Shown: positions 6,358-62,974 of the stretch, piece by piece | Layout: every line of letters begins with the position of its first letter | Position numbering within the stretch: the stretch's first letter is position 1 | Assembly: GCA_964291285.2 (NCBI GenBank) | Contig: OZ219786.1 | Span: 928,001-992,000, forward strand | Length of the DNA: 64,000 nt | Reading direction: 5' to 3' | Source of the DNA: Alphaproteobacteria bacterium | Lineage (GTDB): Bacteria > Pseudomonadota > Alphaproteobacteria > Bin95 | Translations under genes and position numbers: made by a program | The notes under the pieces: model-generated | What the model was told of the DNA's origin: nothing | Seen by the model: the letters and a program-made list of their open reading frames with translations, nothing else | Databases searched by the model: none

Positions 6358-8715
6358 TCACCGGTCGCCCGGATCGGGCATGCGGTATCCGACGCCGCGC
6401 TCGTTGAAGATCCAGGCCGGGTGCTGGGCGTCCTCGCCGAGCTTGCGGCGCAGGTTGCGCACGAAGATGCGGACCAGGTTCGGGCCGGCATGCTCCCGCC
6501 CGGCCCAGACCTGGCGGAGCAGCATGTCGTAAGGGACTACCCGTCCGGCATTGAGCGAGAGTACCCGCAGGAGCGCATACTCGGTCGCGGTGAGGTCCGC
6601 CGCGCGCCCTGCCACCGTGACGCGGCGGCTCTCGTAGTCGACCGCGAGGTCGCCCAGCACGAACGGGGCCGGGCGCTCGCGCTTTCTCAGCGCCGCCCGC
6701 ACCCGCGCGGTGAGCTCGGTCGGCGAGAAGGGCTTGACGATGTAGTCCGCGGCGCCGGCGTCGAGCGCCCGCGCGACGGTCTCGTCGCGGCCATAGACGG
6801 AGATGAAGATGACCGGCAGGTCGGAGAGCTCGGGGATCCGGGTCATCAGTTCGACGCCGTCGGCGCCGGGCAGCGCCAGGTCGAGCAGGACGAGCGCCGG
6901 CTTCTCCGCGCGGATGATGCGTGCGAGCTCGTGATGGTCACCCGTAACCAGGGGCGCGTAGCCCTTGGCCGAAAGCGCGTCGCGCACGAAGCGCAGCGTG
7001 CGCGGGTCGTCGTCGACCACGAGGATGCGGACGGGCTCGGCGGCGTCGCGGGGCGGGCGCGACGGTCCCGGGGCGGCACCGGGCGCCTCGCCGCCGGTGT
7101 CCTCGGCCATCGGCACGGTGAAGACGATGGTCGTGCCCTGGCCGGGGCCGGCGCTCTCGGCCCGGATGCGTCCGCCATGCGCCTCCACCAGCCCCTTGCA
7201 GATCGCGAGGCCTAGGCTGTGGCCCGGCGTCTTGCCCTCCGGTCCGCCGCCTTCGGGGGCGATGTGCTTGCGGAACAGATGCGCCAGCCGCTCCGGCGCC
7301 AGGCCCCGGCCCTCGTCGGAGACCGAGATCGCGACATGGGCGCCCTCCTGCACCGCCGAGAGCCGGATGGCGGACGATTCCGGAGCGTTCCGCGCAGCGT
7401 TGGAGAGCAGGTTGTTCAGCACCTGCACGATGCGCCGCCGGTCGGCCATCGCCCGTGGAAGGCCCGGCGGAAGGTCGATGACGACACCGTGCCGCGCGCC
7501 GCCGCTCAGAAACGTGTTCCGCGCGCGCTCCATCAGGTCGGCCACCTCCGAGGGCTCGGGCGCGACCGAGAGCGTGCCGGCCTCGATACGCCCGGCATCG
7601 AGCAGGTCGCCGATCAGGCCGCGCATGTGGTCGGCCTGCTCGATGATGAGGCGGTGGAACTCGCGCATCTCGGCCGGGTCGAGCGCCGGCGTCTCCTCCA
7701 TCAGCGTCACCGCCGAGCCCTTGATGGCGGCCAGCGGCTCGCGCAACTCGTGGCTCACCAGGCCCAGGAACTCGGTCCGCATGCGCTCGATCTCGTCCAG
7801 CGGCGCGAGGTCCTGGGCGGTCACCACAACCGAGCCAATGGCGTCCCCTTCGGCGGGGATCGGGGTGGCGTTGACCAGCGCCCTGACGCTGCGCCCGTCC
7901 GGCACCGAGAGCACCATCTCCTCGACGCGCACCGTCTCGCCGCTGGTGAGCTGCTGCGCGATGGGGATCTCGCTCAGGGACACCTCGCTCCCGTCGGCGC
8001 GCCGGAAGGACATCACCTCCAGGAGTTGTTCGAGCGGACGGCCGGGCATGCGCAGTCTCTCCACGATCCGCCGCATCTCGCGGTTCAGAGACGCCGCCCG
8101 GCCGCGCTTCACATCGAAGACCACGACGCCCACCGGCGAGGTCTCGACCAAGGCCTCGAGATCGGCCCGCGCGCGCTGCTCGGCGCGGTGCGCGCGCGCG
8201 TTGGCGATCGTTGCCGCGGCCTGGGAGGCGAACAGCGTCAGCACTTCCTCGTCCCCGGCGGTGAACGCTTCGCCGTCGGCCTTCTCGGCGAGGAAGAAGC
8301 TGCCGGCCTCCAGGCCCCGGTGGCGCATCGGCATGCCCAGGAAGGTCCGGGAGATCGTCCAGGCAGCCTCGATGCCGAGCGCGCGGACATAGCCCGGGAA
8401 GTCGGCCACCCGCACCGGCTCCGGCCGGGTGCGCAGATGCTCGAACAGGCGGGCATTGCCGGGCCAGGCGAGCTGTTCGCGCTCCTCCTTCGGCGTGAGC
8501 CCCGAGAATATCGGCAACTGGGGCACGCCCTCCTCGTCGAGGACGACGATGACGCCGTAGCGGGCGCCGGTCAGCGCGCGGGCACTCTCCAGCGCCTCGT
8601 CGAGCACGGTGTCGAGGTCCAGGGTGGCGTTGATGCGCAGGATAGCCGCGTTCAGGGCGGAGATGGCCCCGCGCAGCGCCTCATTCTCCCGCCTCAGCTC
8701 GTCGGACTGCGTCAC
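6358..8715 (-). CDS. Soluble hybrid sensor kinase/response regulator fusion (GAF-PAS-HisKA-HATPase-REC-OmpR wHTH)
   Basis: H-box VSHELREPL, N-box VLNNLLSNA, DEGRG, LGLAICKGLVEAHGG, receiver ILVVDDD/LLDLALPG/YIVKPF, KdpE-like tail LRRKLGED...GVGYRM; GTG start. Confidence 0.9.
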   Translation of the reverse strand: MTQSDELRRENEALRGAISALNAAILRINATLDLDTVLDEALESARALTGARYGVIVVLDEEGVPQLPIFSGLTPKEEREQLAWPGNARLFEHLRTRPEPVRVADFPGYVRALGIEAAWTISRTFLGMPMRHRGLEAGSFFLAEKADGEAFTAGDEEVLTLFASQAAATIANARAHRAEQRARADLEALVETSPVGVVVFDVKRGRAASLNREMRRIVERLRMPGRPLEQLLEVMSFRRADGSEVSLSEIPIAQQLTSGETVRVEEMVLSVPDGRSVRALVNATPIPAEGDAIGSVVVTAQDLAPLDEIERMRTEFLGLVSHELREPLAAIKGSAVTLMEETPALDPAEMREFHRLIIEQADHMRGLIGDLLDAGRIEAGTLSVAPEPSEVADLMERARNTFLSGGARHGVVIDLPPGLPRAMADRRRIVQVLNNLLSNAARNAPESSAIRLSAVQEGAHVAISVSDEGRGLAPERLAHLFRKHIAPEGGGPEGKTPGHSLGLAICKGLVEAHGGRIRAESAGPGQGTTIVFTVPMAEDTGGEAPGAAPGPSRPPRDAAEPVRILVVDDDPRTLRFVRDALSAKGYAPLVTGDHHELARIIRAEKPALVLLDLALPGADGVELMTRIPELSDLPVIFISVYGRDETVARALDAGAADYIVKPFSPTELTARVRAALRKRERPAPFVLGDLAVDYESRRVTVAGRAADLTATEYALLRVLSLNAGRVVPYDMLLRQVWAGREHAGPNLVRIFVRNLRRKLGEDAQHPAWIFNERGVGYRMPDPGDR

Positions 8716-16864: not shown

Positions 16865-18634
16865 ATGGCCGGGAAGCAGTTGCGCAGCCGGAATTGGTTC
16901 AACGACCCGCACGATCCGGGCATGACCGCCATGTATATCGAGCGATACATGAACTACGGCATCACGCGGGAGGAGCTGCAGTCCGGCAAGCCCATCGTCG
17001 GCATCGCGCAGACCGGCTCCGACCTTTCGCCCTGCAACCGCATCCACCAGACGCTGGCCGAGCGGATGCGCGCCGGAATCCGTGAGGCCGGCGGCATCGC
17101 CATCGAATTCCCGGTCCATCCGATCCAGGAGAGCGGGCGCAGGCCGACTGCCGCCATCGACCGGAACCTCGCCTATCTGGGCCTCGTCGAGGTGCTGCAC
17201 GGCTATCCCATCGACGGGGTTATCCTGACCACCGGCTGCGACAAGACCACGCCGGCGATGATCATGGCGGCGGCGACGGCGAACCTGCCGGCCATCTCGC
17301 TCAATGGCGGGCCGATGTTCAACGGCTGGTGGAAGGGCCGGCGCGTCGGCTCCGGCACCATCGTCTGGGAGGCGCGCAAGCTGCAGGCGGCGGGCGAGAT
17401 CGGCTATGAGGAGTTCATCGAGATGGTGGCCTCCTCCGCGCCGAGCCCCGGCCACTGCAACACCATGGGCACGGCCACGACGATGAACTCGCTCGCCGAG
17501 GCGCTCGGCATGTCGCTGCCGGGCTCGGCCGCGCCGCCCGCCCCGCACAAGGAGCGCGCGCAATACGCCTACGAGACCGGGCGGCGCATCGTCGCCATGA
17601 TCCACGAGGACCTTACGCCCGACCGCATACTGACCCGCGCCGCCTTCGAAAACGCCATCGCCGTCAACAGCGCCATCGGCGGGTCCACCAATGCGCCGAT
17701 CCACATCAACGCCATCGCGCGCCATATGGGCGTCGAGCTGGCGCTGGAGGACTGGCAGGACTGCGGCTACGACATCCCGCTGCTGGTCAACTGCCAGCCG
17801 GCCGGCGGCTATCTGGCCGAGGACTACCACCGCGCAGGCGGCGTGCCCGCCGTCATGGGCGAACTGCTGCGCGCCGGGAAGCTGAACCCGGATGCGCTTA
17901 CCGTCACCGGCAGGACAACCGCCGAAAATATCGGCGACGCCGCTCCGCTCGACGAGGATGTCATCCGGCCCTACGGGCAGCCGTTGAAGGAGCGCGCCGG
18001 CTTCGTCGTCATGGGCGGCAACCTGTTCGACGCCGCGGTGATGAAGACCAGCGTCATCTCCAAGGAGTTCCGCGCGCGCTTCCTGTCCAACCCCGACGAC
18101 CCCGATGCCTTCGAGGGCCGGGCCATCGTGTTCGACGGGCCGGAGGACTATCACGCGCGGCTCGACGACCCGGCGCTCGGCATCGACGGGACTTCCATCC
18201 TGGTGATGCGCGGGGCGGGGCCGGTCGGCTATCCGGGCTCGGCCGAGGTGGTCAACATGCAGCCGCCGGCAGCCCTCATCCGCCAAGGCGTCACCGAGCT
18301 GCCGACCATCGGCGACGGGCGCCAGTCCGGCACTTCGGGCAGTCCATCCATCCTGAACGCGAGCCCGGAGAGCGCGGTCGGCGGCAATCTCGCCATCCTG
18401 GAGACCGGCGACCGGCTGCGCGTGGACCTCCGCAAGCGCCGCGTAGACATCCTGCAGCCGGAAGAGGTGCTGGCCACCCGCCGCGCCGCCTACGACCCGC
18501 CGCCGCTGGAGAACCACACGCCCTGGGAAGAGCTCTACCGCAGCCATGTGGGCCAGCTTGCGGACGGCGGCTGCCTGGAATTCGCCACCCGCTACCACCG
18601 CGTCGCCGCCTCCCCGCCCCGTCACTCGCACTGA
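16865..18634 (+). CDS. IlvD/Edd family dehydratase (sugar-acid dehydratase-like)
   Basis: SPCN, GCDKTTP, GHCNTMGTA, GGSTNA, GDGRQSGTSG. Confidence 0.9.
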   Translation: MAGKQLRSRNWFNDPHDPGMTAMYIERYMNYGITREELQSGKPIVGIAQTGSDLSPCNRIHQTLAERMRAGIREAGGIAIEFPVHPIQESGRRPTAAIDRNLAYLGLVEVLHGYPIDGVILTTGCDKTTPAMIMAAATANLPAISLNGGPMFNGWWKGRRVGSGTIVWEARKLQAAGEIGYEEFIEMVASSAPSPGHCNTMGTATTMNSLAEALGMSLPGSAAPPAPHKERAQYAYETGRRIVAMIHEDLTPDRILTRAAFENAIAVNSAIGGSTNAPIHINAIARHMGVELALEDWQDCGYDIPLLVNCQPAGGYLAEDYHRAGGVPAVMGELLRAGKLNPDALTVTGRTTAENIGDAAPLDEDVIRPYGQPLKERAGFVVMGGNLFDAAVMKTSVISKEFRARFLSNPDDPDAFEGRAIVFDGPEDYHARLDDPALGIDGTSILVMRGAGPVGYPGSAEVVNMQPPAALIRQGVTELPTIGDGRQSGTSGSPSILNASPESAVGGNLAILETGDRLRVDLRKRRVDILQPEEVLATRRAAYDPPPLENHTPWEELYRSHVGQLADGGCLEFATRYHRVAASPPRHSH

Positions 18635-18671
18635 GCGGCGGCGCAGCCCGGAGGCGGCCTGGCCCGCCAAT

Positions 18672-44084: not shown

Positions 44085-44251
44085 TCGTGTCCGGGACGGC
44101 CCCGGTGAAGTCGAACAAAGCGTGGCCTTGACCGGCATTTGGCGGGGTTTCCCGATCGGTATTTGGCGCGGCCGGTGACCGGGGCCGGGGCGGGAGGCAG
44201 TCCCCCTCCAAAGTCGCAAAGAATGAAAAAAATCTAATGATTTTGACTTTT

Positions 44252-44293
44252 GTTCGTGTTTTGATCTTGACATCTGGCGGATTGTGATATGAT
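44252..44293 (+). promoter_or_regulatory. Promoter-like motif of element copy A with a degenerate LexA box
   Basis: GTTC-N7-GATC (44252-44266) abutting TTGACA (44267) and TG-A-TATGAT (44285-44293). Confidence 0.5.
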
Positions 44294-44525
44294 GGTCCCC
44301 GGGGAAGCGGATCCGGAGCCGCGTCCCCGGGTGCCGCGCGGCCGAGCGGCGCTATTTCTGAAAACCCGTGAGAAGCCGACGGGAGACGTGCGCCCTCTGC
44401 CTCGCGCGCGCAATCAGGCGCGCGAACCGCGCCGGCGCCGACACGCGCCCGGGCAGGCGCGGGCGCCCGCGCAGGATACGCGCGGAAAAGGGACCCGCTC
44501 CCGGTCGGAGCAAGGAGGAACGATG
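44281..44525 (+). repeat. Conserved structured leader, copy A (candidate ncRNA or cis element)
   Basis: Collinear conserved blocks shared with 56481-56746(-), including 38 identical nt at 44407-44444. Confidence 0.85.
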
Positions 44526-44540
44526 ACCGCAAAGCGCAAC

Positions 44541-44646
44541 CGTCACCCCGGCCGGAGCGGAGCGGAGAGCCGGGGTCCATCCTCCGCCCTCTCTACCGGG
44601 CTGCAACGGTCAGGGATGGGCCCCGGCTCCGGGGCCGGGGCGACGG
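44541..44646 (+). repeat. REP/BIME-like palindromic element, family 1 copy 2
   Basis: CGTCACCCCGG...CCGGGGTCCAT...GATGGGCCCCGG...CCGGGGCGACGG. Confidence 0.72.
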
Positions 44647-44731
44647 TGAACGCAAGACACAGAAGGAGACCGAAGAGTGGATGACTTCATGCCGGAAACG
44701 GCTACAGCATATAAACCCTGCGCATGGAAAA

Positions 44732-44801
44732 CATGACACTTCATGACATGTTGCGCAGTGTCCTGCGGGGCCCGCATGACAAAACATGACATCTCATGAC
44801 A
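44732..44801 (+). repeat. CATGACA direct-repeat array (2+3 copies, 10-bp period)
   Basis: CATGACA at 44732, 44742, 44775, 44785, 44795. Confidence 0.9.
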
Positions 44802-44849
44802 TCGGCCGGGGAGGCGCGGCGCGTCCGCATTGCGGTCCTGCCGCTTTGT

Positions 44850-52604: not shown

Positions 52605-53663
52605 TCAGACGATGCCGACGGGGTTGGCGGGGGAGCCGACCGCGCCCGGCAGGCGCAGCGGCTGGCAGGTGGTGAAAAAGCGTGTCCGGCCGAGCTCGCG
52701 CAGGCGGCGGGCGAGATCGCCCAGATACCAGAGTTCGCCGAGCGGCACGCCGAGCTTGAACAGGCAGTGCTGGTGCAGCGGCGAGTGGGCGTAGCGCTCT
52801 CCCGGCGCCGGCCGGGCAGGCGATTGCTCGACGGCGTAGTTGTCGGCGAAGAGCGCCGCGACACCCGAATCCGTGATCCATTGCAGCAGCCGGTCGTCGC
52901 GCCCGTCGAGCGCCGCGCAGCTGTTTGCCAGGCGCGGGCCGTCCGGCTCCCTCTCCATCTCCAGCAGCAGGTCCGCGAAACCGGTATAGAAGAAGGCGAG
53001 GTCGCCTTCCTTGACGGCGGCCCCGGTTTCCTCCAGCACGCGCATCAGGTCTTCATAGGTGACGAGGTGGCGCCCCTCGCGCCCGAAGAAGCGTTCCAGG
53101 TCGATCATCACGCCCCGGCCCACCACGCCCTTCTCCGCGAAGGTCTCGATGCCGAGCCTGCGCGCGCCCATCGCTTCCGGGCGCGGGGTCTGCGAGCCGT
53201 CAGCGTGGTAGTCCACCGGCCCGATGATGTCCTCGCCGCCCCTGAAGCCGTTGTAGAAGCGGATTTCCGGGATGCCGTCGCCGTCCGCATCGAACATCTG
53301 CCCCATATGGCAGAAGGCGTCCCACTGCGAGGAATATTGCAGCGTCATCTGCACCCGGTCGTCGCAGCCGACATCGATATGGCGCGGGTCTTCGAGCTGG
53401 AGCGGAAAGTTGTAGCGCGGCGCGCCGTCGGGCCCCCGGGTCGGCTCCAGCACCGGCGGATGGCGGCGCGGATTGAGGACGTTGCGGCCCGGATAGTCCA
53501 GCGGCAGGGACAGGCAATAGACTTCGCCCAGGCGGATTTCCTCGCGCGCTGCCAGCACCCGCTCCGGCGTCAGCAGGTTCAACCGGCCGAGCTGGTCATC
53601 CGGCCCCCAGTCGCCCCAGGTGGACCCCTCCGGACGCCGTTTCCAGCGCGCATTTTCCCTCAT
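52605..53663 (-). CDS. Cyclase family metal-dependent hydrolase
   Basis: WGPDDQLGRLN, SQWDAFCH, GRGVMID, LGELW, GSPANP. Confidence 0.88.
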   Translation of the reverse strand: MRENARWKRRPEGSTWGDWGPDDQLGRLNLLTPERVLAAREEIRLGEVYCLSLPLDYPGRNVLNPRRHPPVLEPTRGPDGAPRYNFPLQLEDPRHIDVGCDDRVQMTLQYSSQWDAFCHMGQMFDADGDGIPEIRFYNGFRGGEDIIGPVDYHADGSQTPRPEAMGARRLGIETFAEKGVVGRGVMIDLERFFGREGRHLVTYEDLMRVLEETGAAVKEGDLAFFYTGFADLLLEMEREPDGPRLANSCAALDGRDDRLLQWITDSGVAALFADNYAVEQSPARPAPGERYAHSPLHQHCLFKLGVPLGELWYLGDLARRLRELGRTRFFTTCQPLRLPGAVGSPANPVGIV

Positions 53664-53740
53664 GCGTCCCTTTCTCCCGCTTGCCGCCGGCGCAGTTGCG
53701 GCTACGGTAACGGAACCCGAATGCATAAGGAAACGCCGAA

Positions 53741-54517
53741 ATGAGCAATCCCTTCAGCCTCGAAGGCCGCAATGTCCTGGTCACGGGCGCCGCACAGGGC
53801 GTCGGCCGGGAGGTCGCGCGCACCGTCGTCTCGATGGGCGGCCGCGTCGCTGTCGTCGATCTCAACAAGGAAGGCATCGACAGCCTCGTCGCCGAGCTCG
53901 GCGAGGACAGGGCGATGGGCTTCCACGGCTCGGTCACCGAACAGGACCTGGCGGACGGCATCGTCGAGGCGGTGGTGGGCGAGTGGGGCTCGATCACCGG
54001 CCTTGTCAACAATGCCGGCATCGTCCGTGCCGCCATGATCCACAAGATGAGCCGCGAATACTGGGACGAGGTCATCAATGTGAACCTCACCGCCGTCTAT
54101 CTGGTGCTGCAGTCGGTCGGCAGGCGGATGATCGCGCAGTCGGAGACCGGCGAGTTCGGCGTCTGCCCCGGCCAGATCGTCAATGTGTCCTCGATCGCCG
54201 GCACGGCCGGCACCATCGGCCAGATCAACTACGGCGCGGCCAAGGCCGGCGTGCTCGGCATCACCATGAGCGCGGCGCGCGAATGGGCGCGCTACGGCAT
54301 CTGCGTGAATTCGGTGGCGTTCGGCACTGTCGTCACCCCGATGACCGAAGTGATCCGGGGCCCGAAATTCGGCGCCCAGACGATGGCCCGCATTCCGCTC
54401 GGCCGCTATGCCGAGACCAGCGATGTGGCGCCGGCCGTCTGCTTCCTGCTCGCGCCGGGGGCCAACTACATCACCGGCAAGAACCTCACCATCGACGGCG
54501 GCATGACCGCGATGTGA
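53741..54517 (+). CDS. SDR, FabG-like 3-oxoacyl reductase
   Basis: TGAAQGVG, NNAG, GQINYGAAKAG. Confidence 0.9.
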   Translation: MSNPFSLEGRNVLVTGAAQGVGREVARTVVSMGGRVAVVDLNKEGIDSLVAELGEDRAMGFHGSVTEQDLADGIVEAVVGEWGSITGLVNNAGIVRAAMIHKMSREYWDEVINVNLTAVYLVLQSVGRRMIAQSETGEFGVCPGQIVNVSSIAGTAGTIGQINYGAAKAGVLGITMSAAREWARYGICVNSVAFGTVVTPMTEVIRGPKFGAQTMARIPLGRYAETSDVAPAVCFLLAPGANYITGKNLTIDGGMTAM

Positions 54518-54526
54518 GGCAGGGGC

Positions 54527-55414
54527 GTGACCGCTCTTTCGACGGGGCCCTGGCGGAGCTTCCTGTTCGCCCCGGCCAACCATGCGCGCATGGCGGAGAA
54601 GGTGTTCCGGGCGGGCGCCGACGCGGCGATCCTGGACCTTGAGGACGCGGTCGCGGTCGCGGAGAAGCCGGCCGCTCGCGCCGACGCGGTCGCCGCTCTC
54701 AGGCGGCCGCGGCCTTGCAAAGGCTTCGTGCGCGTCAACGCCGCCGAGACGGAGTGGTGCTTCGGGGACATGGAGGCGATCGTCGGGCCGTGGCTCGACG
54801 GCATCGTGCTGCCGAAGCTCGAGAGCGCGGCCATGCTCCGGACCATCGACTGGACGCTGGCCCAGCTCGAGCGCAAGGCCGGGCTGGAACCGGGCAGCAT
54901 CGACCTCATGCCCATCGTCGAGACCGGCCTCGGCATCTCCAACCTGAAGGAGATCGCCGCCTGCCGCTCGCGCCTCGGGCGGCTCTGCTTCGGGGCCGGC
55001 GACTACACGCTCGATGTCGGGATGCGCTGGTCGCTGGACGAGACGGAGCTGGCGCATGCGCGCGCGGCGATGGTGGTGGAATCGCGCGCGGGCGGGCTGG
55101 AGCCGCCGGTCGATACGGTGTTCATCGAGTTGCGCGAGACGGAGGCCTTCGCGGCCTCGGCGCGCCGCGCGCTCGCGCTCGGCTTCCAGGGCAAGCTCTG
55201 CATCCATCCGAGCCAGGTGGGGCCGGTCAACGACGCCTTCTCGCCGACGGAGGAGGAGACGACACGCGCGCGGCGCATCGTCGCGGCGTTCGACGAAGCC
55301 GAGGCCGCCGGCTCCGCCTCCATCCAGGTGGACGGCTATTTCGTCGATTACCCCATCGTCGAAAAGGCCCGCCGCACCCTGGCCCTGGCGGACCGCATAG
55401 CGGAGCGGGGCTGA
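54527..55414 (+). CDS. CitE/malyl-CoA lyase family CoA-ester lyase
   Basis: LDLEDAV, FVRVN, LPK, IVET, GKLCIHPSQ. Confidence 0.9.
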   Translation: MTALSTGPWRSFLFAPANHARMAEKVFRAGADAAILDLEDAVAVAEKPAARADAVAALRRPRPCKGFVRVNAAETEWCFGDMEAIVGPWLDGIVLPKLESAAMLRTIDWTLAQLERKAGLEPGSIDLMPIVETGLGISNLKEIAACRSRLGRLCFGAGDYTLDVGMRWSLDETELAHARAAMVVESRAGGLEPPVDTVFIELRETEAFAASARRALALGFQGKLCIHPSQVGPVNDAFSPTEEETTRARRIVAAFDEAEAAGSASIQVDGYFVDYPIVEKARRTLALADRIAERG

Positions 55415-55421
55415 GGGCGGG

Positions 55422-55451
55422 TATGTGCCGGGGTCCATGGACCGGCGCATA
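55422..55451. terminator. Hairpin between convergent genes
   Basis: TATGTGCC-GG-GGTCCATGGACC-GGCGCATA fold-back with no strong U tract. Confidence 0.35.
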
Positions 55452-55470
55452 GGGGCCACTCCACGCGCCG

Positions 55471-55497
55471 TGTCATGGAATGTCATGATCTGTCATG
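55471..55497 (-). repeat. CATGACA direct-repeat array (3 copies, 10-bp period)
   Basis: Plus strand TGTCATG at 55471, 55481, 55491; overlaps the stop codon of the TerS-like ORF. Confidence 0.9.
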
Positions 55498-56483
55498 TCC
55501 GGGGGCGAATTCGACGCTGTCGAACCGGTCGCCGCCCGCCGGTCCGGGTCGCCGGTCCAGTCCTCTTCCTCATCGCCGTCGCCGTCCCGGTCGCCGCTCC
55601 AGTCGTTGTCTTCGTCTTCGCCCCGCTCTTCCCGTTCGAGGCGGCTCTGCCTGCGCTCCTCGACCTGCTCCGGGGCCCAGGGGTCGTAGATGTCGTCGTA
55701 TCCGTTGCGGCGCTGGTAGAGCCAGTCATGTTCGGCGCCGTCGGCCCGGTCGTCGTCGGTGCTGTCCTCGTGGCCGGGCGCGGCGGCGGCGGCCCACGGG
55801 CAGTCTTCGTAGGTCTCCTCCGGCGGGTCGTCGGCCGGCGGCAGGTCGTTTGCCGGCGCGGGCGGGGGGCCGAAGCTCACGGGCAGGCGGGAGCGCTCCT
55901 CGACGGCCGCGGCGAGCCTGCGGGCGGCCTCCTCATGCGCGGCCCCGTCGAAGCCCTCCTGCGCCTCCATCTCCTCCCGTCGCTCGCGGTGGCGGGCGAG
56001 CGCTCGTTCGGCCCGGGCATGGCCGCTGCGCACGGCGTCTGCGAGCGGTCCGGGTTCGGTGCCGGTCTCCTGCGCCTCGCCCGCTTCGATCTCGCCGAAC
56101 TCGTCCTCGTGCGGCAGCGGCCAGAGGCGGGCCCGGTTCGCGCCGGCCGGACTGACAAGCCCGGCGATCTCGGCCTGGAAGCGCAGCACCCGGAGCATCA
56201 TGTAAGCCGAGCCGCTGGCGACGGCGGCGTCCCAGGCCTGCTCCGAGCGGGCGAGCAGGATGCGGGCCTCGTCGCGTTCGGTGCGCTTCCAGGACAGGCG
56301 GATGCGGCGCACGCGCTCGACGATCCAGGGCCGCTCCAGCAGGGCGCATCCGGTCTGTCGTGCGGAGCGCTCGGCATAGCCGGCCTGCCTTGCAGCGTCT
56401 GCGGCATTGCCGGAGGCGGTGTAGTGGCGGCAGAAGGCTTCCTGGCGGGTGGAAAGCGCGACGGCGGGGTCGATGACGGGCAT
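55473..56483 (-). CDS. Orphan terminase-small-subunit-like HTH protein with a long acidic low-complexity tail
   Basis: AAAGGAG RBS; LSTRQEAFCRHYTASGNAADAARQAGYAERSARQTGCALL matches the TerS N-terminal HTH pattern; D/E-rich C-terminal part; no other phage genes nearby. Confidence 0.75.
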   Translation of the reverse strand: MPVIDPAVALSTRQEAFCRHYTASGNAADAARQAGYAERSARQTGCALLERPWIVERVRRIRLSWKRTERDEARILLARSEQAWDAAVASGSAYMMLRVLRFQAEIAGLVSPAGANRARLWPLPHEDEFGEIEAGEAQETGTEPGPLADAVRSGHARAERALARHRERREEMEAQEGFDGAAHEEAARRLAAAVEERSRLPVSFGPPPAPANDLPPADDPPEETYEDCPWAAAAAPGHEDSTDDDRADGAEHDWLYQRRNGYDDIYDPWAPEQVEERRQSRLEREERGEDEDNDWSGDRDGDGDEEEDWTGDPDRRAATGSTASNSPPDMTDHDIP

Positions 56484-56760
56484 GGTGTGCGGCTCCTTTC
56501 GTTCCGCTGGCGTTCGACAGGCAGGCCCGGCGGGGAGCGACCCTTATTCGCGCGTATCCTGCGCGCGCCTGTGCCGGCGCGGGCGGGTGTCGGCGCCGGC
56601 GCGGTTCGCGCGCCTGATTGCGCGGGCGCGAGGCGGGCGCAGGGCACACCTCGCCTGTCGGCTGAATCGGGGTCGTTCCGCACCGGGCCGGCGCGGGCGG
56701 GAAGCGGCTCCGGATGCCTCCTCCCTCGCACCCATCATACCACAATTTCTGAAAATGCAA
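56481..56760 (-). repeat. Conserved structured leader plus promoter-like motif, copy B
   Basis: TTGCAT-N15-TATGAT, then the same blocks as 44281-44525; 38-nt core at 56587-56624. Confidence 0.85.
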
Positions 56761-56869
56761 GCCCCATTATAAGAATTATTACATAAACTTCAGGAACGAC
56801 TTGTTATATGCCTTCATCACCCGCTCTCGCCTCCGGGCAGAGGCGCCGGTGCCTCGTGCGGCCGCAGCC

Positions 56870-57067
56870 TCACTGCCGGAGGTCCCGGCCCGCCCTCCGG
56901 CCGCCGGCGCAGGCGTCTTCCGTCAACAGGCGAGCGTCGCGGCGGTCGCGGTAAATCGCCCCGCCGATGAGTTGCCTATCCCTGAAATCGCGCCGGAGTC
57001 TCCTGTCCTGCGTGTAGAGGAGCCGGACGCCGGTGGCGCGGGCGAGCGCGACGACATGCGGGTCACG
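56870..57067 (-). pseudogene. C-terminal fragment of a PIN-like domain protein
   Basis: Frame not in the ORF list: RDPHVVALARATGVRLLYTQDRRLRRDF...; no in-frame start; truncated where the AT-rich sequence begins. Confidence 0.5.
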
Positions 57068-57295
57068 TGAGTATATATATTTGGAGCATCCTCTGATCCA
57101 TATGGATCGACTGTTTGTCGACGACCAGCCATCGGCTTTGCCTCATTTCGTCGCCTTGGGCCCCAATCCGAGGTGACGGTTGGGATCTACAGACGAGACT
57201 GTTTTAATTCGAACGGCTCATGCTCTAAATTGCGTATCACGTATTCCAAATATCATTAATGATAGTCATGGAGAAAATATTGCCTCAGACCAAAG

Positions 57296-57580
57296 TCAGA
57301 AAACAAAAAAATATCGCCTTCTTCTTCCTTCACCCTGTGCATTTACTGTAGGGTATGCATGATGTTTATCTTGAAAATTCCTGATAAAAATATGCTCCAT
57401 CAGCGTTGGAATTGTATTTCTCCAAGGACGAACAAGACATACAATCATTCGGACACCTGCCAAATATCCATGAACTTTCATAGGAAGTTTGTAACCATAT
57501 AAAACTAGGTAATTTCTTCGCATATCGTCGAGAAACCGATTGCCGAAATCGTTTGTCTTGCCGATGTAAACCACTTCCAT
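57296..57580 (-). CDS. Low-GC GIY-YIG-like nuclease fragment or small ORF
   Basis: VVYIGKTNDFGNRF...MEHIFIRNF...HHAYPTVN; AT-rich islet; first GIY strand missing or frameshifted. Confidence 0.45.
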   Translation of the reverse strand: MEVVYIGKTNDFGNRFLDDMRRNYLVLYGYKLPMKVHGYLAGVRMIVCLVRPWRNTIPTLMEHIFIRNFQDKHHAYPTVNAQGEGRRRRYFFVF

Positions 57581-57706
57581 TATCTCGCCGCAAGAAATCG
57601 AGGTAGTCCACTGGCCGCCCTATCCTTTTGTTCCCCAGCAGAGAACTGCCAACATCGTTTGTGCCTCATTTATATAGCGCAACTCCCGATGACCTGCTTT
57701 CGTGGA

Positions 57707-58504
57707 CTATCCAGCATCCTCATTGTCTACGGCCCACGGCGGCGGGCGCTTTTCGTTGAAGGCGTCTATGCCGGCGCGGGCGGCGGGGGCTCGGAGGAGG
57801 GCGGCTATGGTGTGCGCGGCGTCGTCCAGGGTTTCGTTCACCGGGCGGTCGGAGGCGGAGATGACCAGGCGCTTGGCCTGCGCGACGGCCCCGGGCTCCG
57901 AGCGGCGGACCTGATCGAGCACCCCGGCCAGCGCCGAATCGGCGTCCTCCCGGCTGGCCGCGAGAATGTGGGCGAGGCCGTCGCGGAGCGCGTCGCGGCC
58001 GTCCAGTATGGTGCCGGTCGCGACCAGCCGCCGGGTCCAGCCCTCGCCCATGCGCCGCACGATGTGGGGGATGACCTGGGCCGGGATGAAGCCGGAGCGC
58101 GCCTCGGGCAGGCCGATCTTCGCGTCCTCGGTGACGATCACGACATCGGAGCAGCAGGCCATGCCGAGGCCGCCGCCCGTGCAGGCGCCCTCGACCACCG
58201 CGATGACGGCCTGCGGCAGCGCGTTCAGCAACTCCAGAACATGGCCCATCCTGCGATAGACGGGAAAGAGCGGGTCCGGATCCGCGGCCGGCGGGACGTC
58301 TCCCAGCATCGACATGTCGCCGCCGGCCGAGAACTGCCCGCCCTCGCCCCGCAGCACGACGGCGCGCGCGTCCGACGCCCCGGCTTCCCGAAAGGCGGCC
58401 AGCAGCGCGTCCATTGTCTCCTGGGTCAGCGCGTTGCGGCGCCCGGGCCGCGTCAGCCGGACATGAAGGGCGATTCCCTCCCGCTCGACCCGGACCGGGC
58501 TCAC
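57707..58504 (-). CDS. Enoyl-CoA hydratase/isomerase family protein
   Basis: RRNALT, FSAGGD, GACTGGG, GLPEARSG. Confidence 0.9.
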   Translation of the reverse strand: MSPVRVEREGIALHVRLTRPGRRNALTQETMDALLAAFREAGASDARAVVLRGEGGQFSAGGDMSMLGDVPPAADPDPLFPVYRRMGHVLELLNALPQAVIAVVEGACTGGGLGMACCSDVVIVTEDAKIGLPEARSGFIPAQVIPHIVRRMGEGWTRRLVATGTILDGRDALRDGLAHILAASREDADSALAGVLDQVRRSEPGAVAQAKRLVISASDRPVNETLDDAAHTIAALLRAPAARAGIDAFNEKRPPPWAVDNEDAG

Positions 58505-60087
58505 GACGGGGACCCGAACCCGCCCGCGCCGGGGGTCTCGACGCGGAGCCCTTCACCCTCGCGCACAATGACGCCCGACGGCTTGATCTCAAGAGGGGTT
58601 TCGGACCCGGAGCCGTCCAGAAGCGCGAACCGGCCCCGGCCGCCGGGCTCTCCGCCGGCAAGGCCCCAGGGCGCGTTGGAGAAGCGCTCGCCCGCACCGT
58701 TGAAGAGGCAGTCATGCCCCACCGGCCTGACCACTCGATAGAGCCCACGCCCGCCCCGGAACCGCCCCGCGCCGCCGGAGCCTTCCAGCAGGCCGTAGCG
58801 CTCGACCATCAGCGGGTATTCGGTCTCGATGGCCTCGACCGGCAGGTTGGAGGTGTTGGTGATGCCGACCTGCACGCCGTCCTTGCCGTGCCCGCCCGGC
58901 CAGCCGCCGGCGCCGCCGCCGAGCGTTTCCAGATAGAGGTAGCCTTCGCCCGTTCGCGGGTCGATGCCGGAGAAGACGGCGGTGGTGTTGGCGCCGTTGC
59001 CGGCCGCCGGCGCACGGTCGGGCACGGCCGGCGCAAGCGCGCCGAACACGGTGTCGATGATCCGCTGGCAGGTATGCGCCCGCGCCGCCACCGGGGCGGG
59101 GAAGACGGCGTTGAGCAGCGAGCCGCGCGGGGCTGAAATCTCCACGCAGTCGATCACCGCCTGGTTGTTCGGCACTTCGGGGTCCAGCAGCGCCTTGAGC
59201 GTGTAGGTGACCGCGGCGACGGTCGCGTTCATGGTCACATTGACGTTGCCGGGCACCTGCGGCGCGGTGCCGGAGAAGTCGAAGCTGGCGCGCCCGCCCT
59301 TCTTCTCGACCGTCAGCACGATTGGGATGTCGCGGGCCTCCAGCCCGTCATCGTCCATGACGTCGTCGAAGCGGTAGGTGCCGTCGGGGATCGCGCGGAT
59401 GGCGTCCGCCATGCGTCCGGCAGTGCGCGCCAGCATGTCCTCGAAGGCGGCGAGCACGGTATCGGCGCCGTAGGCCGCGACGGTCTCCGCCATGCGCCTC
59501 ACGCCCAGATTGCAGGCCGCGACCTGGGCGAAATAGTCCCCGCGCCGCTCGTTCGGCAGCCGCACGTTCAGCAGTACGAGGTCGAACAGCTCCTGTTGCA
59601 GCACGCCCCGGCGGAAGAGCTTGACCACCGGCACGCGCAGCCCTTCCTGGTAGATCTCCGACATGCCGCCGGCCATCGACCCCGGCGCCATGCCGCCGAC
59701 ATCGGCATGGTGGGCGATATTGCAGACCCAGGCGACGATGCGCCCGTCCGCGAACACCGGCGCGGCCATGTTGATGTCGGGAAGGTGGGTGCCGCCGGCC
59801 GTGTGCGGATCGTTGGCGATGACGATATCGCCTTCCTCGATATCGTCGCCGTAGCGGGCCAGCAGGCAGTCCATCAGCCCGCTCATCGACGCGATGTGGA
59901 TCGGCAGGGACTGCTCCGCCTGCGCGATCAGCCGGCCCTGCGCGTCCATGACCGCGGTCGAGTGGTCGTGCCGCTCCTTTATGTTCGTGGAGTAGGCGCT
60001 CTTCATCAGCGCGGCGAAGGTTTCGTCGGTTATGGAGCGCAGCGCGTTGGCGAGGATTTCGAGGCCGATGGGGTCGAGGGCGGTCAT
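58501..60087 (-). CDS. Hydantoinase B/oxoprolinase family protein
   Basis: SAYSTNIKERHDHS, NDPHTAGGTHLPD, HHADVGG, IYQEG, TPGAGGFG. Confidence 0.93.
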   Translation of the reverse strand: MTALDPIGLEILANALRSITDETFAALMKSAYSTNIKERHDHSTAVMDAQGRLIAQAEQSLPIHIASMSGLMDCLLARYGDDIEEGDIVIANDPHTAGGTHLPDINMAAPVFADGRIVAWVCNIAHHADVGGMAPGSMAGGMSEIYQEGLRVPVVKLFRRGVLQQELFDLVLLNVRLPNERRGDYFAQVAACNLGVRRMAETVAAYGADTVLAAFEDMLARTAGRMADAIRAIPDGTYRFDDVMDDDGLEARDIPIVLTVEKKGGRASFDFSGTAPQVPGNVNVTMNATVAAVTYTLKALLDPEVPNNQAVIDCVEISAPRGSLLNAVFPAPVAARAHTCQRIIDTVFGALAPAVPDRAPAAGNGANTTAVFSGIDPRTGEGYLYLETLGGGAGGWPGGHGKDGVQVGITNTSNLPVEAIETEYPLMVERYGLLEGSGGAGRFRGGRGLYRVVRPVGHDCLFNGAGERFSNAPWGLAGGEPGGRGRFALLDGSGSETPLEIKPSGVIVREGEGLRVETPGAGGFGSPS

Positions 60088-62309: not shown

Positions 62310-62539
62310 CAATCATGCCATTCGAGGGAGCCGGAAGAGGCCATGACTTGATAGCGAAAGCGGCGGTGCCGCTCCTGCAGAAGGCGAACGCGCGGTGGCG
62401 AGGGGGCGGCCGCACAACAGGGCAGGTGCGCGCGCCGGGCCGCGGCTATTCATCGGGGTTCGAACACTTCCGGGGCCGGGCGGGCGCAATGTTCATCGCA
62501 ACCGGGCAGGCGGCATCCGGGAAGGGAGACACGGGAGAC

Positions 62540-62974
62540 ATGGGGAACATGAAGGACATGACGGTGGTGAGCAGGCGGGGCCTTGCGATCGGCGAGCATC
62601 TCAGGCGCCGCGCGGTCGCGGCGGTGCTGGAGAAGGGGATGAGCATGCGCGCCGCGGCGCAGCTCTACGAGGTGAGCGAGACCAGCGTCTGGCTCTGGGT
62701 GCAGCGTTTCCGCGAGCGCGGCCATGTCCGGCCCGACAGGCAGGGCGGCGGCGGGGTCTCGCGGATCGAGCCGGAGCGGGAGCGGATTCTTCGCATTCTG
62801 GCGGCGCGGCCGGCACTCTCCATCCACGGGCTGTGCAAGGCGCTGGCCGCCGAGGGCCTCACCTTCAGCTTCTCAACGGTGCAGCGCTTCCTGAAGCGCC
62901 ACGGCCTCGAACGCAGCAAACGCCTCGCCGCCGCAGAGCTCGTCCGGAAGTCCCGGCCGCGGACAGGCGGGTGA
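62540..62974 (+). CDS. IS630-family transposase-derived HTH protein (no DDE domain)
   Basis: LRRRAVAAVLEKGMSMRAAAQLYEVSETSVWLWVQRFRERG...STVQRFLKRHGL; no catalytic ORF or TIRs seen; alternative ATGs at 62549 and 62558. Confidence 0.72.
   Translation: MGNMKDMTVVSRRGLAIGEHLRRRAVAAVLEKGMSMRAAAQLYEVSETSVWLWVQRFRERGHVRPDRQGGGGVSRIEPERERILRILAARPALSIHGLCKALAAEGLTFSFSTVQRFLKRHGLERSKRLAAAELVRKSRPRTGG

Follow-up and report, generated by a model that had tools for sequence, protein, structure and literature searches.

What is a gene resembling the small subunit of a phage terminase (TerS) doing among the metabolic genes of an alphaproteobacterium? The gene in question, a coding sequence (CDS) of 336 aa (55473..56483, minus strand, ATG start, stop codon included), lies in a stretch of 64,000 nucleotides (the window) that represents positions 928001-992000 of contig C2 in a genome assembly of 6.13 Mb and five contigs (G000). 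As noted in the original prediction, its neighbours are metabolic, and no large terminase subunit (TerL), portal or capsid gene is to be found among them. The results presented here favour a selfish or regulatory element, hitherto undescribed, over a gene for virus packaging, and about an even chance can be given to the more specific proposal that the product is a TerS-derived protein which binds its own phased repeats and thereby constitutes the protein part of a dispersed, probably selfish family of cassettes. Searches of the full-text literature, exclusive of supplements, returned no description of a multicopy terminase-like gene or of the CATGACA repeats that accompany it.

Comparison of positions 53000-59500 with the remainder of the same genome by blastn confirmed that the gene is part of a repeated, self-contained 1.35-kb unit (approximately 55452-56804), outside which similarity drops sharply when ten copies are aligned together with 600-bp flanks. 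This alignment and the empty sites described below define the boundaries of a unit that contains a single open reading frame (ORF), its parts being arranged in the order AT-rich stretch and promoter-like box, leader of approximately 250 nt, ORF, and an array of CATGACA repeats (iterons) overlapping the stop codon. The promoter-like box and the AT-rich stretch upstream of it (56734..56795, minus strand) are conserved across copies: in the window copy the box consists of CTTGCA (56761-56756), 16 nt and TATGAT (56739-56734), with TGG preceding, the family consensus is CTTGACA ... GTGATATGAT, and the box is kept both in 82 aligned leader copies and in all ten full-length copies. A scan for sigma-70 sites (TTGACA, 16-18 nt, TATAAT) recorded none at this position because the spacer measures 15 nt from TTGACA (16 from CTTGAC), an arrangement that agrees with the CTTGAC-N16-17 form of alphaproteobacteria. 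Conservation of this kind suggests that the box may act as a promoter.

Between the box and the start codon lies the GC-rich 5' leader (56484..56733, minus strand), the 3' end of which is a Shine-Dalgarno-like GAAAGGAG. Folding of the leader as RNA gave a predicted energy of -144.8 kcal/mol (z = -3.35), which was equalled by none of 200 shuffled sequences, while RNAalifold analysis of 81 copies indicated that GC/AU exchanges were confined to the first hairpin and that the other stems barely varied; Rfam returned no match at E ≤ 1 over positions 55000-58000. On these data the leader is no more than a candidate structured RNA. At the opposite end of the unit, three CATGACA repeats spaced exactly 10 bp apart lie over the stop codon (55472..55497, minus strand), where they encode the final residues of the protein (...MTDHDIP). 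The 3' flank that follows (55421..55471, minus strand) extends from the iterons to the point at which homology with relatives' empty sites resumes, as placed by junction comparison with five such sites (L099, L100, L102, L104 and L107), and includes, just past the iterons, a 12-mer (TGGAGTGGCCCC) resembling the end of an IS3-family insertion sequence (IS) present in the same genome.

The description of the gene as an orphan in the original prediction thus holds for its phage context but fails for its copy number. The genome contains 12 matches to Terminase_2, all above the cut-off, and ten full-length copies were detected by tblastn, with proteins 83-97.6% identical to that of the window copy, plus eight partial matches. 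Searching the genome with a model of the unit (nhmmer) gave 136 matches, those for the full-length copies spanning model positions 3-27 to 1336-1370, and the count of paralogs bearing the leader that had been proposed alongside the prediction was ten out of ten, each of them also carrying the 3' motif. The leader itself is present in 96 copies (nhmmer), and many blastn matches to its region (56527-56746) were recorded at 68-92% identity. In total, about 100 units are dispersed over all five contigs.

Some 86 of these units have kept the leader and the repeats but carry as cargo a 41-codon ORF, an unrelated 192-aa ORF or a truncated gene. The short units, a subfamily of 38 with a common interior, measure approximately 365-830 bp, apart from two of approximately 2.5 kb that carry an IS insertion, and their consensus (28 of the 38 copies) comprises the 41-codon ORF (MPKTR...HDIS) and two iteron arrays. 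A unit of the short form also occurs in the window (44233..44810, plus strand), where it consists of a leader (nhmmer match C2:972233-972502, model positions 24-290) and two iteron arrays (44732-44800), the TerS-like gene being absent. Unrelated cargo is carried by seven units, and is exemplified by the 192-aa ORF (MTATDPRP...) of copy L089 (487-1065; G000:C2:43786-44364), which has about six paralogs, follows the same leader as the TerS-like gene, encodes a proline- and acid-rich product ending ...HDKT inside the iterons, and matched no Pfam or known family. Homology of this product to the tail of the TerS-like protein was considered and rejected (BLASTP E = 0.5). Truncated TerS-like units situated at different loci have breakpoints in common (model position 410 joined to ~1279 in four copies, and 511 to ~1277 in three), and the deleted forms must therefore have multiplied, or been copied, subsequent to deletion.

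The iterons exhibited an equally characteristic distribution. Pairs of ATGAC spaced at exactly 10 bp occur 284 times in the genome, compared with between one and 50 times for any other spacing from 5 to 40 bp, and group into 150 arrays. Of these arrays, 126 lie on the same strand as a leader and no more than 3 kb downstream of its start (75 within 600 bp, 45 at 600-1500 bp and 6 at 1500-3000 bp) and the other 24 do not; reciprocally, 87 of the 96 leader copies are followed by an iteron array at a distance of up to 3 kb. Within the window the pattern CATGAC-N4-CATGAC was matched five times, against an expectation of 0.00, with two matches at the TerS-like gene and three at the short unit. The co-occurrence of gene and iterons extends well beyond close relatives, since 10-bp arrays of TGAC(A/G) are located at or after the stop codon of homologs with 53-57% identity (L072, L074, L083 and L088) and 107-283 nt downstream of homologs with 44-45% identity (L076 and L077). 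The leader, by way of contrast, was undetected upstream of distant homologs in other genera, and because such relatives keep the arrays, gene and iterons appear to represent the old core of the unit and the leader a lineage-specific addition.

A total of 312 protein homologs were recorded at E ≤ 1e-3, the best 120 of which are 68-93% identical and include several from the same long contigs. The 80 contig loci kept all derive from records labelled Alphaproteobacteria or Rhodospirillaceae bacterium, with one Spongia bin, and feature many TerS-like loci per assembly. Among 17 congeneric genomes, 13 carry the family with 6-17 matches each, and four (3.4-3.9 Mb) gave no match at E ≤ 1e-10; in parallel, every one of the 13 carriers has 33-171 matches to the triple-iteron pattern and the four non-carriers have 0, 0, 0 and 9, the reversed pattern deployed as a control being absent from all 17. 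A search of 1.84 billion cluster representatives yielded 818 matches at E ≤ 1e-3, of which only 42 reached E ≤ 1e-30. Distant phmmer matches were proteins of approximately 120-320 aa aligned to residues 9-115, a length and region that would be expected of ordinary phage small terminases.

The TerS-like character of the N-terminus claimed from the sequence was confirmed. The Pfam profile Terminase_2 (PF03592) matched residues 11-72 (42.7 bits, with the cut-off at 26.1; E = 1.1e-10), and PHROG terS families 51, 2606 and 641 also matched the window protein, for which NCBIfam returned no family; the Pfam match covers only profile positions 2-63 of 141. An AlphaFold2 model generated with a 32-sequence alignment (mean predicted local distance difference test score, pLDDT, 69) consisted of helices only, and no enzyme fold featured among its Foldseek matches. 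The TerS-like head, residues 1-115 (56139..56483, minus strand), is predicted with high local confidence (pLDDT 84-96 in 10-residue blocks over residues 11-110) as a helix-turn-helix (HTH) domain with two helices after it, the first of them long (52-90) and the other at 93-107. Alignment A1 (32 sequences), used as a profile, matched the SF6 small terminase in PDB (2cmp_A, 4zc3_A and 3zqp_A; E 1e-8 to 6e-8), and Foldseek superposed the model on 4zc3 and 2cmp with a template-modelling score (target) of 0.82, a root-mean-square deviation (rmsd) of 0.8-1.3 Å and 40% identity over 50 columns, and on 3zqq_C over 124 columns with a probability of 0.92 and an rmsd of 8.1 Å. In Terminase_2 small terminases the core (profile positions ~64-141) forms a ring of 8-11 subunits; a four-copy complex prediction for residues 1-125 of the present protein scored 0.33 relative to a mark of 0.42, and was used neither way. 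Because no terL gene is adjacent and the oligomerisation core is no more than putative, the protein is classed here as terminase-derived and not as a small terminase.

Beyond the head, the protein departs from this template. The acidic, disordered tail of the original prediction, where it was also proposed as a possible DNA mimic, is borne out in its composition, residues 111-336 containing 62 aspartate or glutamate and 22 proline residues out of 226 (37%) with a net charge of -38, and in stretches of low pLDDT, but not throughout, since residues 146-198 (55890..56048, minus strand) form an ordered helical hairpin in the model (pLDDT 82-92). This hairpin region coincides with a conserved block (GP-LA-AVR-GR-RAE-RALA-H), in which G145, P146, A150, G154 and R157 are nearly invariant in A1; Foldseek produced no PDB lead for it, and residues 120-336 gave no usable match in the ESM Atlas. 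The acidic proline-rich tail proper, residues 199-336 (55476..55889, minus strand), has 42 acidic and 17 proline residues in 138 and a variable C-terminal end. Its pLDDT is mostly below 50-65, values under 50 being recorded at residues 203-239 and most of 291-336 (and, ahead of the hairpin, at 131-142), and it includes the motif D-AEH-WLYQRR-GY--IYDPW-PE, conserved in A1. A further block conserved in A1 beyond the head is VEER. Eight of the ten paralogs terminate in a lysine-rich ...KKQKKKKGKKRR...APDHDKT, and the last ~40 residues of the window copy, which differ from those of eight of the nine other paralogs, comprise an acidic variant instead.

Whether so unusual an extension is protein at all was addressed by comparison of the ten paralogs. 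The ratio of nonsynonymous to synonymous differences (pN/pS) was 0.25 for residues 1-110, 0.35 for 111-200 and 0.29 for 201-297, with pS at approximately 0.13, and the GC content of third codon positions (GC3) was 0.87 in the CDS frame compared with 0.77 and 0.55 in the other two. The gene is under purifying selection in head, middle and tail alike, and on these values the tail is both coding and constrained. Of the outcomes by which the original prediction was to be refuted, none was observed: a TerS/HTH profile does match, homologs are chromosomal rather than prophage-borne, and the tail is conserved. The view that only the HTH is coding, with the tail representing read-through of GC-rich non-coding repeat DNA, can draw on the long spurious frames that high GC generates (one of 453 aa lies open on the opposite strand) and on the divergent last ~40 residues just described; in the face of the selection and GC3 data, the conserved blocks, the confidently predicted hairpin, and homologs of 44-57% identity that align to residues 200-270 and beyond, it is largely refuted and retains next to no probability.

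Comparison of orthologous sites established that individual units have been gained or lost. Of 12 congeners compared at the window locus, seven are empty (G002, G003, G004, G005, G008, G009 and G011), with only 24-38 bp separating the aldolase and hydratase genes; in G007 this junction holds a decayed unit, in G006 the insert is a different one of 1.8 kb, and G001, G010 and G012 were classed as neither empty nor filled. The copy at C2:1255270, which in the window's genome has an imperfect 10-bp repeat (GCTTCGRYRA) on either side, is missing from G006 and G022, and the window's genome is itself empty at sites where L045 and L035 carry units. In the case of L045 (3553-5236) the TerS-like unit is nested within imperfect 22-bp inverted repeats (GGGYAGTGTC..GTTTGAC) of another IS family, with a hairpin-like target repeated directly over 21-22 bp at its flanks, and is an instance of hitch-hiking rather than of a mechanism belonging to the unit. 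Inverted repeats of the same type bound two 3.1-kb elements elsewhere in the window's genome (C3:12091-15223 and C3:1268791-1271922). At the unit C3:978044-978509, element-free congeners were only 71-77% identical and too divergent for boundaries to be placed.

A maximum-likelihood tree was built by a quick search from 47 copies in eight assemblies, with branch support from the Shimodaira-Hasegawa-like approximate likelihood-ratio test (SH-aLRT) only. In this tree the copies clustered by assembly, requiring seven label changes, which is the minimum, against a mean of 31.5 after shuffling (none of 200 shuffles was as low). Nine of the ten copies in the window's genome fell in one clade with a support of 99, C2:130870 lying outside the main clade. 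The sites of loci L047 and L027 are orthologous to those of C2:76k and C1:388k, as evidenced by flanks 86-90% identical, and yet their proteins are only 71% and 81% identical, respectively, to that of the window copy. Old insertions thus look young within each genome, from which homogenisation by recombination among copies follows.

Taken as a mechanism, the favoured proposal is that the ORF product would bind DNA in a sequence-specific manner, having arisen from a small terminase of the SPP1/SF6 type by retention of the HTH and helical core, and that it no longer serves as a packaging subunit and has been extended by the conserved hairpin and the acidic tail. By analogy with the binding of small terminases to phased repeats in pac, we infer that an oligomer of the present protein attaches to the phased iterons located 3' in its own unit and in derivative units, with one HTH per helical turn; the TGACA of the unit's -35 box might be a further target, through which the protein would repress its own gene. 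In its behaviour the unit is like selfish DNA, being gained and lost at single sites, missing from some congeners and leaving decayed copies behind. Recombination between the common leader and iteron ends would homogenise copies within a genome, and could also swap cargo between units. The anatomy, copy numbers, selection on the gene, pairing of gene and arrays, insertion polymorphism and concerted evolution are established by the data, whereas contact of protein and iterons, oligomerisation, promoter activity and the route to new copies are inferred. Of the three functions suggested in the original prediction (packaging redirector, anti-phage decoy of TerL, domesticated DNA-binding regulator), the last comes closest to the present findings.

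Several observations weigh against this proposal. Pfam, PHROG and NCBIfam gave no match to a domain of a transposase or recombinase (DDE, HUH, serine or tyrosine), none of 17 inverted pairs had its arms at both ends of the unit, and target duplications were inconsistent, being an imperfect 10 bp in one case, 21-22 bp at the nested L045 and not visible at the window locus, as a consequence of which transposition is not distinguished from duplication, conversion and deletion. The analogy with pac repeats is without support from a crude test, in which exact phased 5-mers were found near none of 46 ordinary phage terS genes and in 25 of 230 control windows. Another protein, a response regulator for example, could be the iteron binder, and both the purifying selection acting on ten copies and their retention at orthologous sites would equally fit a host function.

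That last consideration is the basis of an alternative in which the protein is a host-domesticated regulator or nucleoid organiser, encoded by redundant paralogs and retained for the benefit of the cell, with the ~150 arrays as its chromosomal binding sites. Besides selection on all parts of the ten copies and the orthologous location of some of them across species, the multicopy state of the family in several genera and the conserved promoter-like box of every unit would accord with it. It is nevertheless unlikely on balance, given that neither family nor arrays were found in three of the 17 congeners and a fourth has nine arrays and no gene, that single sites are empty in close relatives and most units have lost the gene, that the three sites examined are gene 3' ends or lie between convergent genes and not at host promoters, and that units are recurrent targets of two IS families as well as places where synteny breaks. 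An effector destined for the nucleus of an animal host, by analogy with bacterial nucleomodulins, is a far more speculative suggestion, in which the HTH would be coupled to an acidic, aromatic, activation-like tail and a lysine-rich nuclear localisation signal (KKQKKKKGKKRR). The composition of the tail and the lysine-rich end in eight of ten paralogs would fit, homologs derive from sponge-associated bins, and one DNA run (share of words 0.29) is labelled sponge metagenome; the idea is nonetheless highly improbable, as it is the bacterial genome that houses the cognate-looking repeats, which sit at the gene's 3' terminus, the window copy and many homologs have no lysine-rich stretch, and neither a secretion signal nor a link to a secretion system was seen, although no search was aimed at either.

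The remaining alternative returns to packaging, with the protein as a working TerS, the iterons as pac sites, and headful packaging of host DNA initiated from ~100 sites by the TerL of either an infecting phage or a resident head module, the outcome being self-transduction (of the GTA type, after the gene transfer agents, or akin to lateral transduction) or an anti-phage decoy that wastes phage capsids. The TerS-type HTH and helical core and the recognition-site-like array inside or beside the gene are as this would require; phages of the pac type are known to carry pac within terS, and the TerS C-termini of several phages bind TerL, as by analogy the long C-terminal extension might. One phage-like head module, the only one in the genome, was indeed located (C2:85300-91400, minus strand; L114 11333-17366), and comprises TerL (phrog_9, E = 1e-48; TerL_nuclease), capsid (PF05065), S78 prohead protease and portal genes. 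Their order, TerL-capsid-protease-portal, is unusual, with a weak DUF5906 match upstream. No recognisable terS adjoins this TerL (C2:89785-91365), the sole one in the genome, which lies 12.6 kb from the nearest paralog (C2:76k) and ~0.9 Mb from the window, so that neither the C2:76k copy nor the window copy has a terL beside it. Homologs of this TerL occur in four of the 17 congeners, at 28-47% identity outside the window's genome, as against 13 of 17 for the TerS-like family, a disparity by which the packaging-related functions of the original prediction lose ground. Homologs of the protein are chromosomal and do not lie in prophages, and the 80 IMG/VR contig loci kept (the best of 102 relatives) match the HTH region, residues 1-91, only, at 36-53% identity, with no tail-bearing relatives among them. 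Together with the restricted occurrence of TerL, this leaves a resident, conserved packaging partner unsupported, although a phage entering from outside could conceivably act as one. The Pfam match confined to positions 2-63 of 141, and units that decay and miniaturise like selfish repeats, some with unrelated cargo, also tell against packaging, which we regard as doubtful, more so than a host regulator. Its minimal form, a selfish satellite of TerS plus pac only, in which the TerS-derived binder would be the sole protein and the phased repeats its own pac-like sites, is less probable again: ~100 sites resembling packaging starts would be distributed over every replicon, a compatible phage terminase would package host DNA together with the element, and spread and homogenisation within the genome would proceed via recombination between the conserved ends.

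Two IS families are associated with the units at defined positions. The IS3-family element (an HTH_Tnp_1 ORF plus an rve ORF; ends TGGAGTGGGCCCC) is represented by C2:1256608-1257890 (L213) and eight further copies of 99-100% identity, and abuts iteron arrays on either side and in either orientation, as confirmed at sequence level in six places. Seven leader copies (C1:257955 in L211, C2:676626 in L212, and five others) stop at model position 273-275, and in L211 and L212 the adjoining DNA encodes the same 599-aa DDE_Tnp_1 transposase, with opposite orientations in the two; a single point in the leader seems to be the target of this IS. In L115 (C3:970000-989999; ~8010-8530 and 18590-18650), homology with most congeners breaks exactly at repeat units, the two sides mapping to distant places or to different contigs, and the units therefore mark rearrangement points and assembly breaks.

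Around the unit, the window encodes a putative cyclase, a short-chain dehydrogenase, an HpcH/HpaI aldolase, an enoyl-CoA hydratase, hydantoinase B and A, and an ammonium transporter. The interval separating the unit from the enoyl-CoA hydratase gene holds a low-GC island (57060-57700; 43-45% GC compared with 66-73% in most surrounding windows), which is missing at relatives' empty sites and seems to have taken the place of the 3' end that the hydratase gene originally had; its ORF 57296-57580 (minus strand, 94 aa), starting MEVVYIGKTNDFGNRF, matched nothing in Pfam, PHROG or NCBIfam. The island cuts off a stretch of ~260 bp on the promoter side of the unit (56805-57060, minus strand), which is also present beside the decayed unit that G007 has at this site (L103) and translates to ...LLYTQDRRLRRDFRDRQLIGGAIY..., a sequence that we take to be like the C-terminal end of a PIN/VapC-type protein, the two ORFs there having no Pfam match. 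Further along the window, the ORF at 62315-62974, with HTH_23, HTH_Tnp_Tc3_2 and HTH_Tnp_1 matches, is probably part of an insertion sequence.

Small terminases are known as components of the motors that package viral DNA and, where satellites carry them, as a means of redirecting those motors. Here a terminase-type DNA-binding module is the single gene of a dispersed repeat family equipped with cognate-looking phased repeats, a family which constitutes a visible share of the repeat content in a genus of uncultured, marine and largely sponge-associated Alphaproteobacteria, marks points of genome rearrangement, and attracts preferential landing by two IS families. If the protein does bind the repeats, the two would form a naturally occurring and simple pairing of a protein with a site phased at 10 bp, and a test case for a protein that has no known catalytic domain riding in, or driving, a multicopy element; if the packaging interpretation were true, no smaller satellite-like system would be known, and genes could be transferred by this route within symbiont populations.

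Among known systems, the SF6 small terminase G1P (3zqq, 3zqp, 2cmp and 4zc3) offers the closest structural parallel, sharing the N-terminal HTH domain and helices that align with the terminase core, and the set of phased direct repeats lies at the gene itself, as does pac in several pac phages. By way of contrast, the present protein has ~220 extra residues in the form of hairpin and acidic tail and no adjacent terL or head genes, and is encoded by ten copies per genome, each with a promoter-like box and leader, accompanied by exact 10-bp iterons in ~150 arrays. The TerS proteins of phage-inducible chromosomal islands (PICIs), including the Staphylococcus aureus pathogenicity islands (SaPIs), and g1 of the Rhodobacter capsulatus gene transfer agent (RcGTA) provide precedents for a TerS homolog outside a complete phage that could redirect packaging by TerL. 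Satellites, however, carry integrase, replication and regulatory genes and att sites, and the terS of gene transfer agents sits in a head-tail cluster, whereas the 1.35-kb unit has a single ORF, contains no PICI-like integrase, replication module or att sites, and has no TerL conserved among its carriers.

In its genomic behaviour the unit is more reminiscent of insertion sequences with their miniature inverted-repeat transposable elements (MITEs), and of repetitive extragenic palindromes (REPs) and bacterial interspersed mosaic elements (BIMEs): there are ~100 dispersed copies, few of them long and coding and many of them short and keeping both ends, with common deletion breakpoints, presence or absence at orthologous sites, landing of insertion sequences and synteny breaks. 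It behaves like an IS/MITE family and yet fails the defining tests, having no transposase, recombinase or HUH protein, no terminal inverted repeats and no consistent target duplication, its ends consisting instead of a promoter-like box with leader and an iteron array. Plasmid modules such as Rep-iteron and ParR-parC resemble the unit in pairing the gene of a DNA-binding protein with an adjacent array of the phased repeats to which that protein binds; relative to these, the TerS-like unit deploys an unrelated fold with no partner ATPase or replication origin, and its arrays, rather than being present once per replicon, are distributed chromosome-wide.

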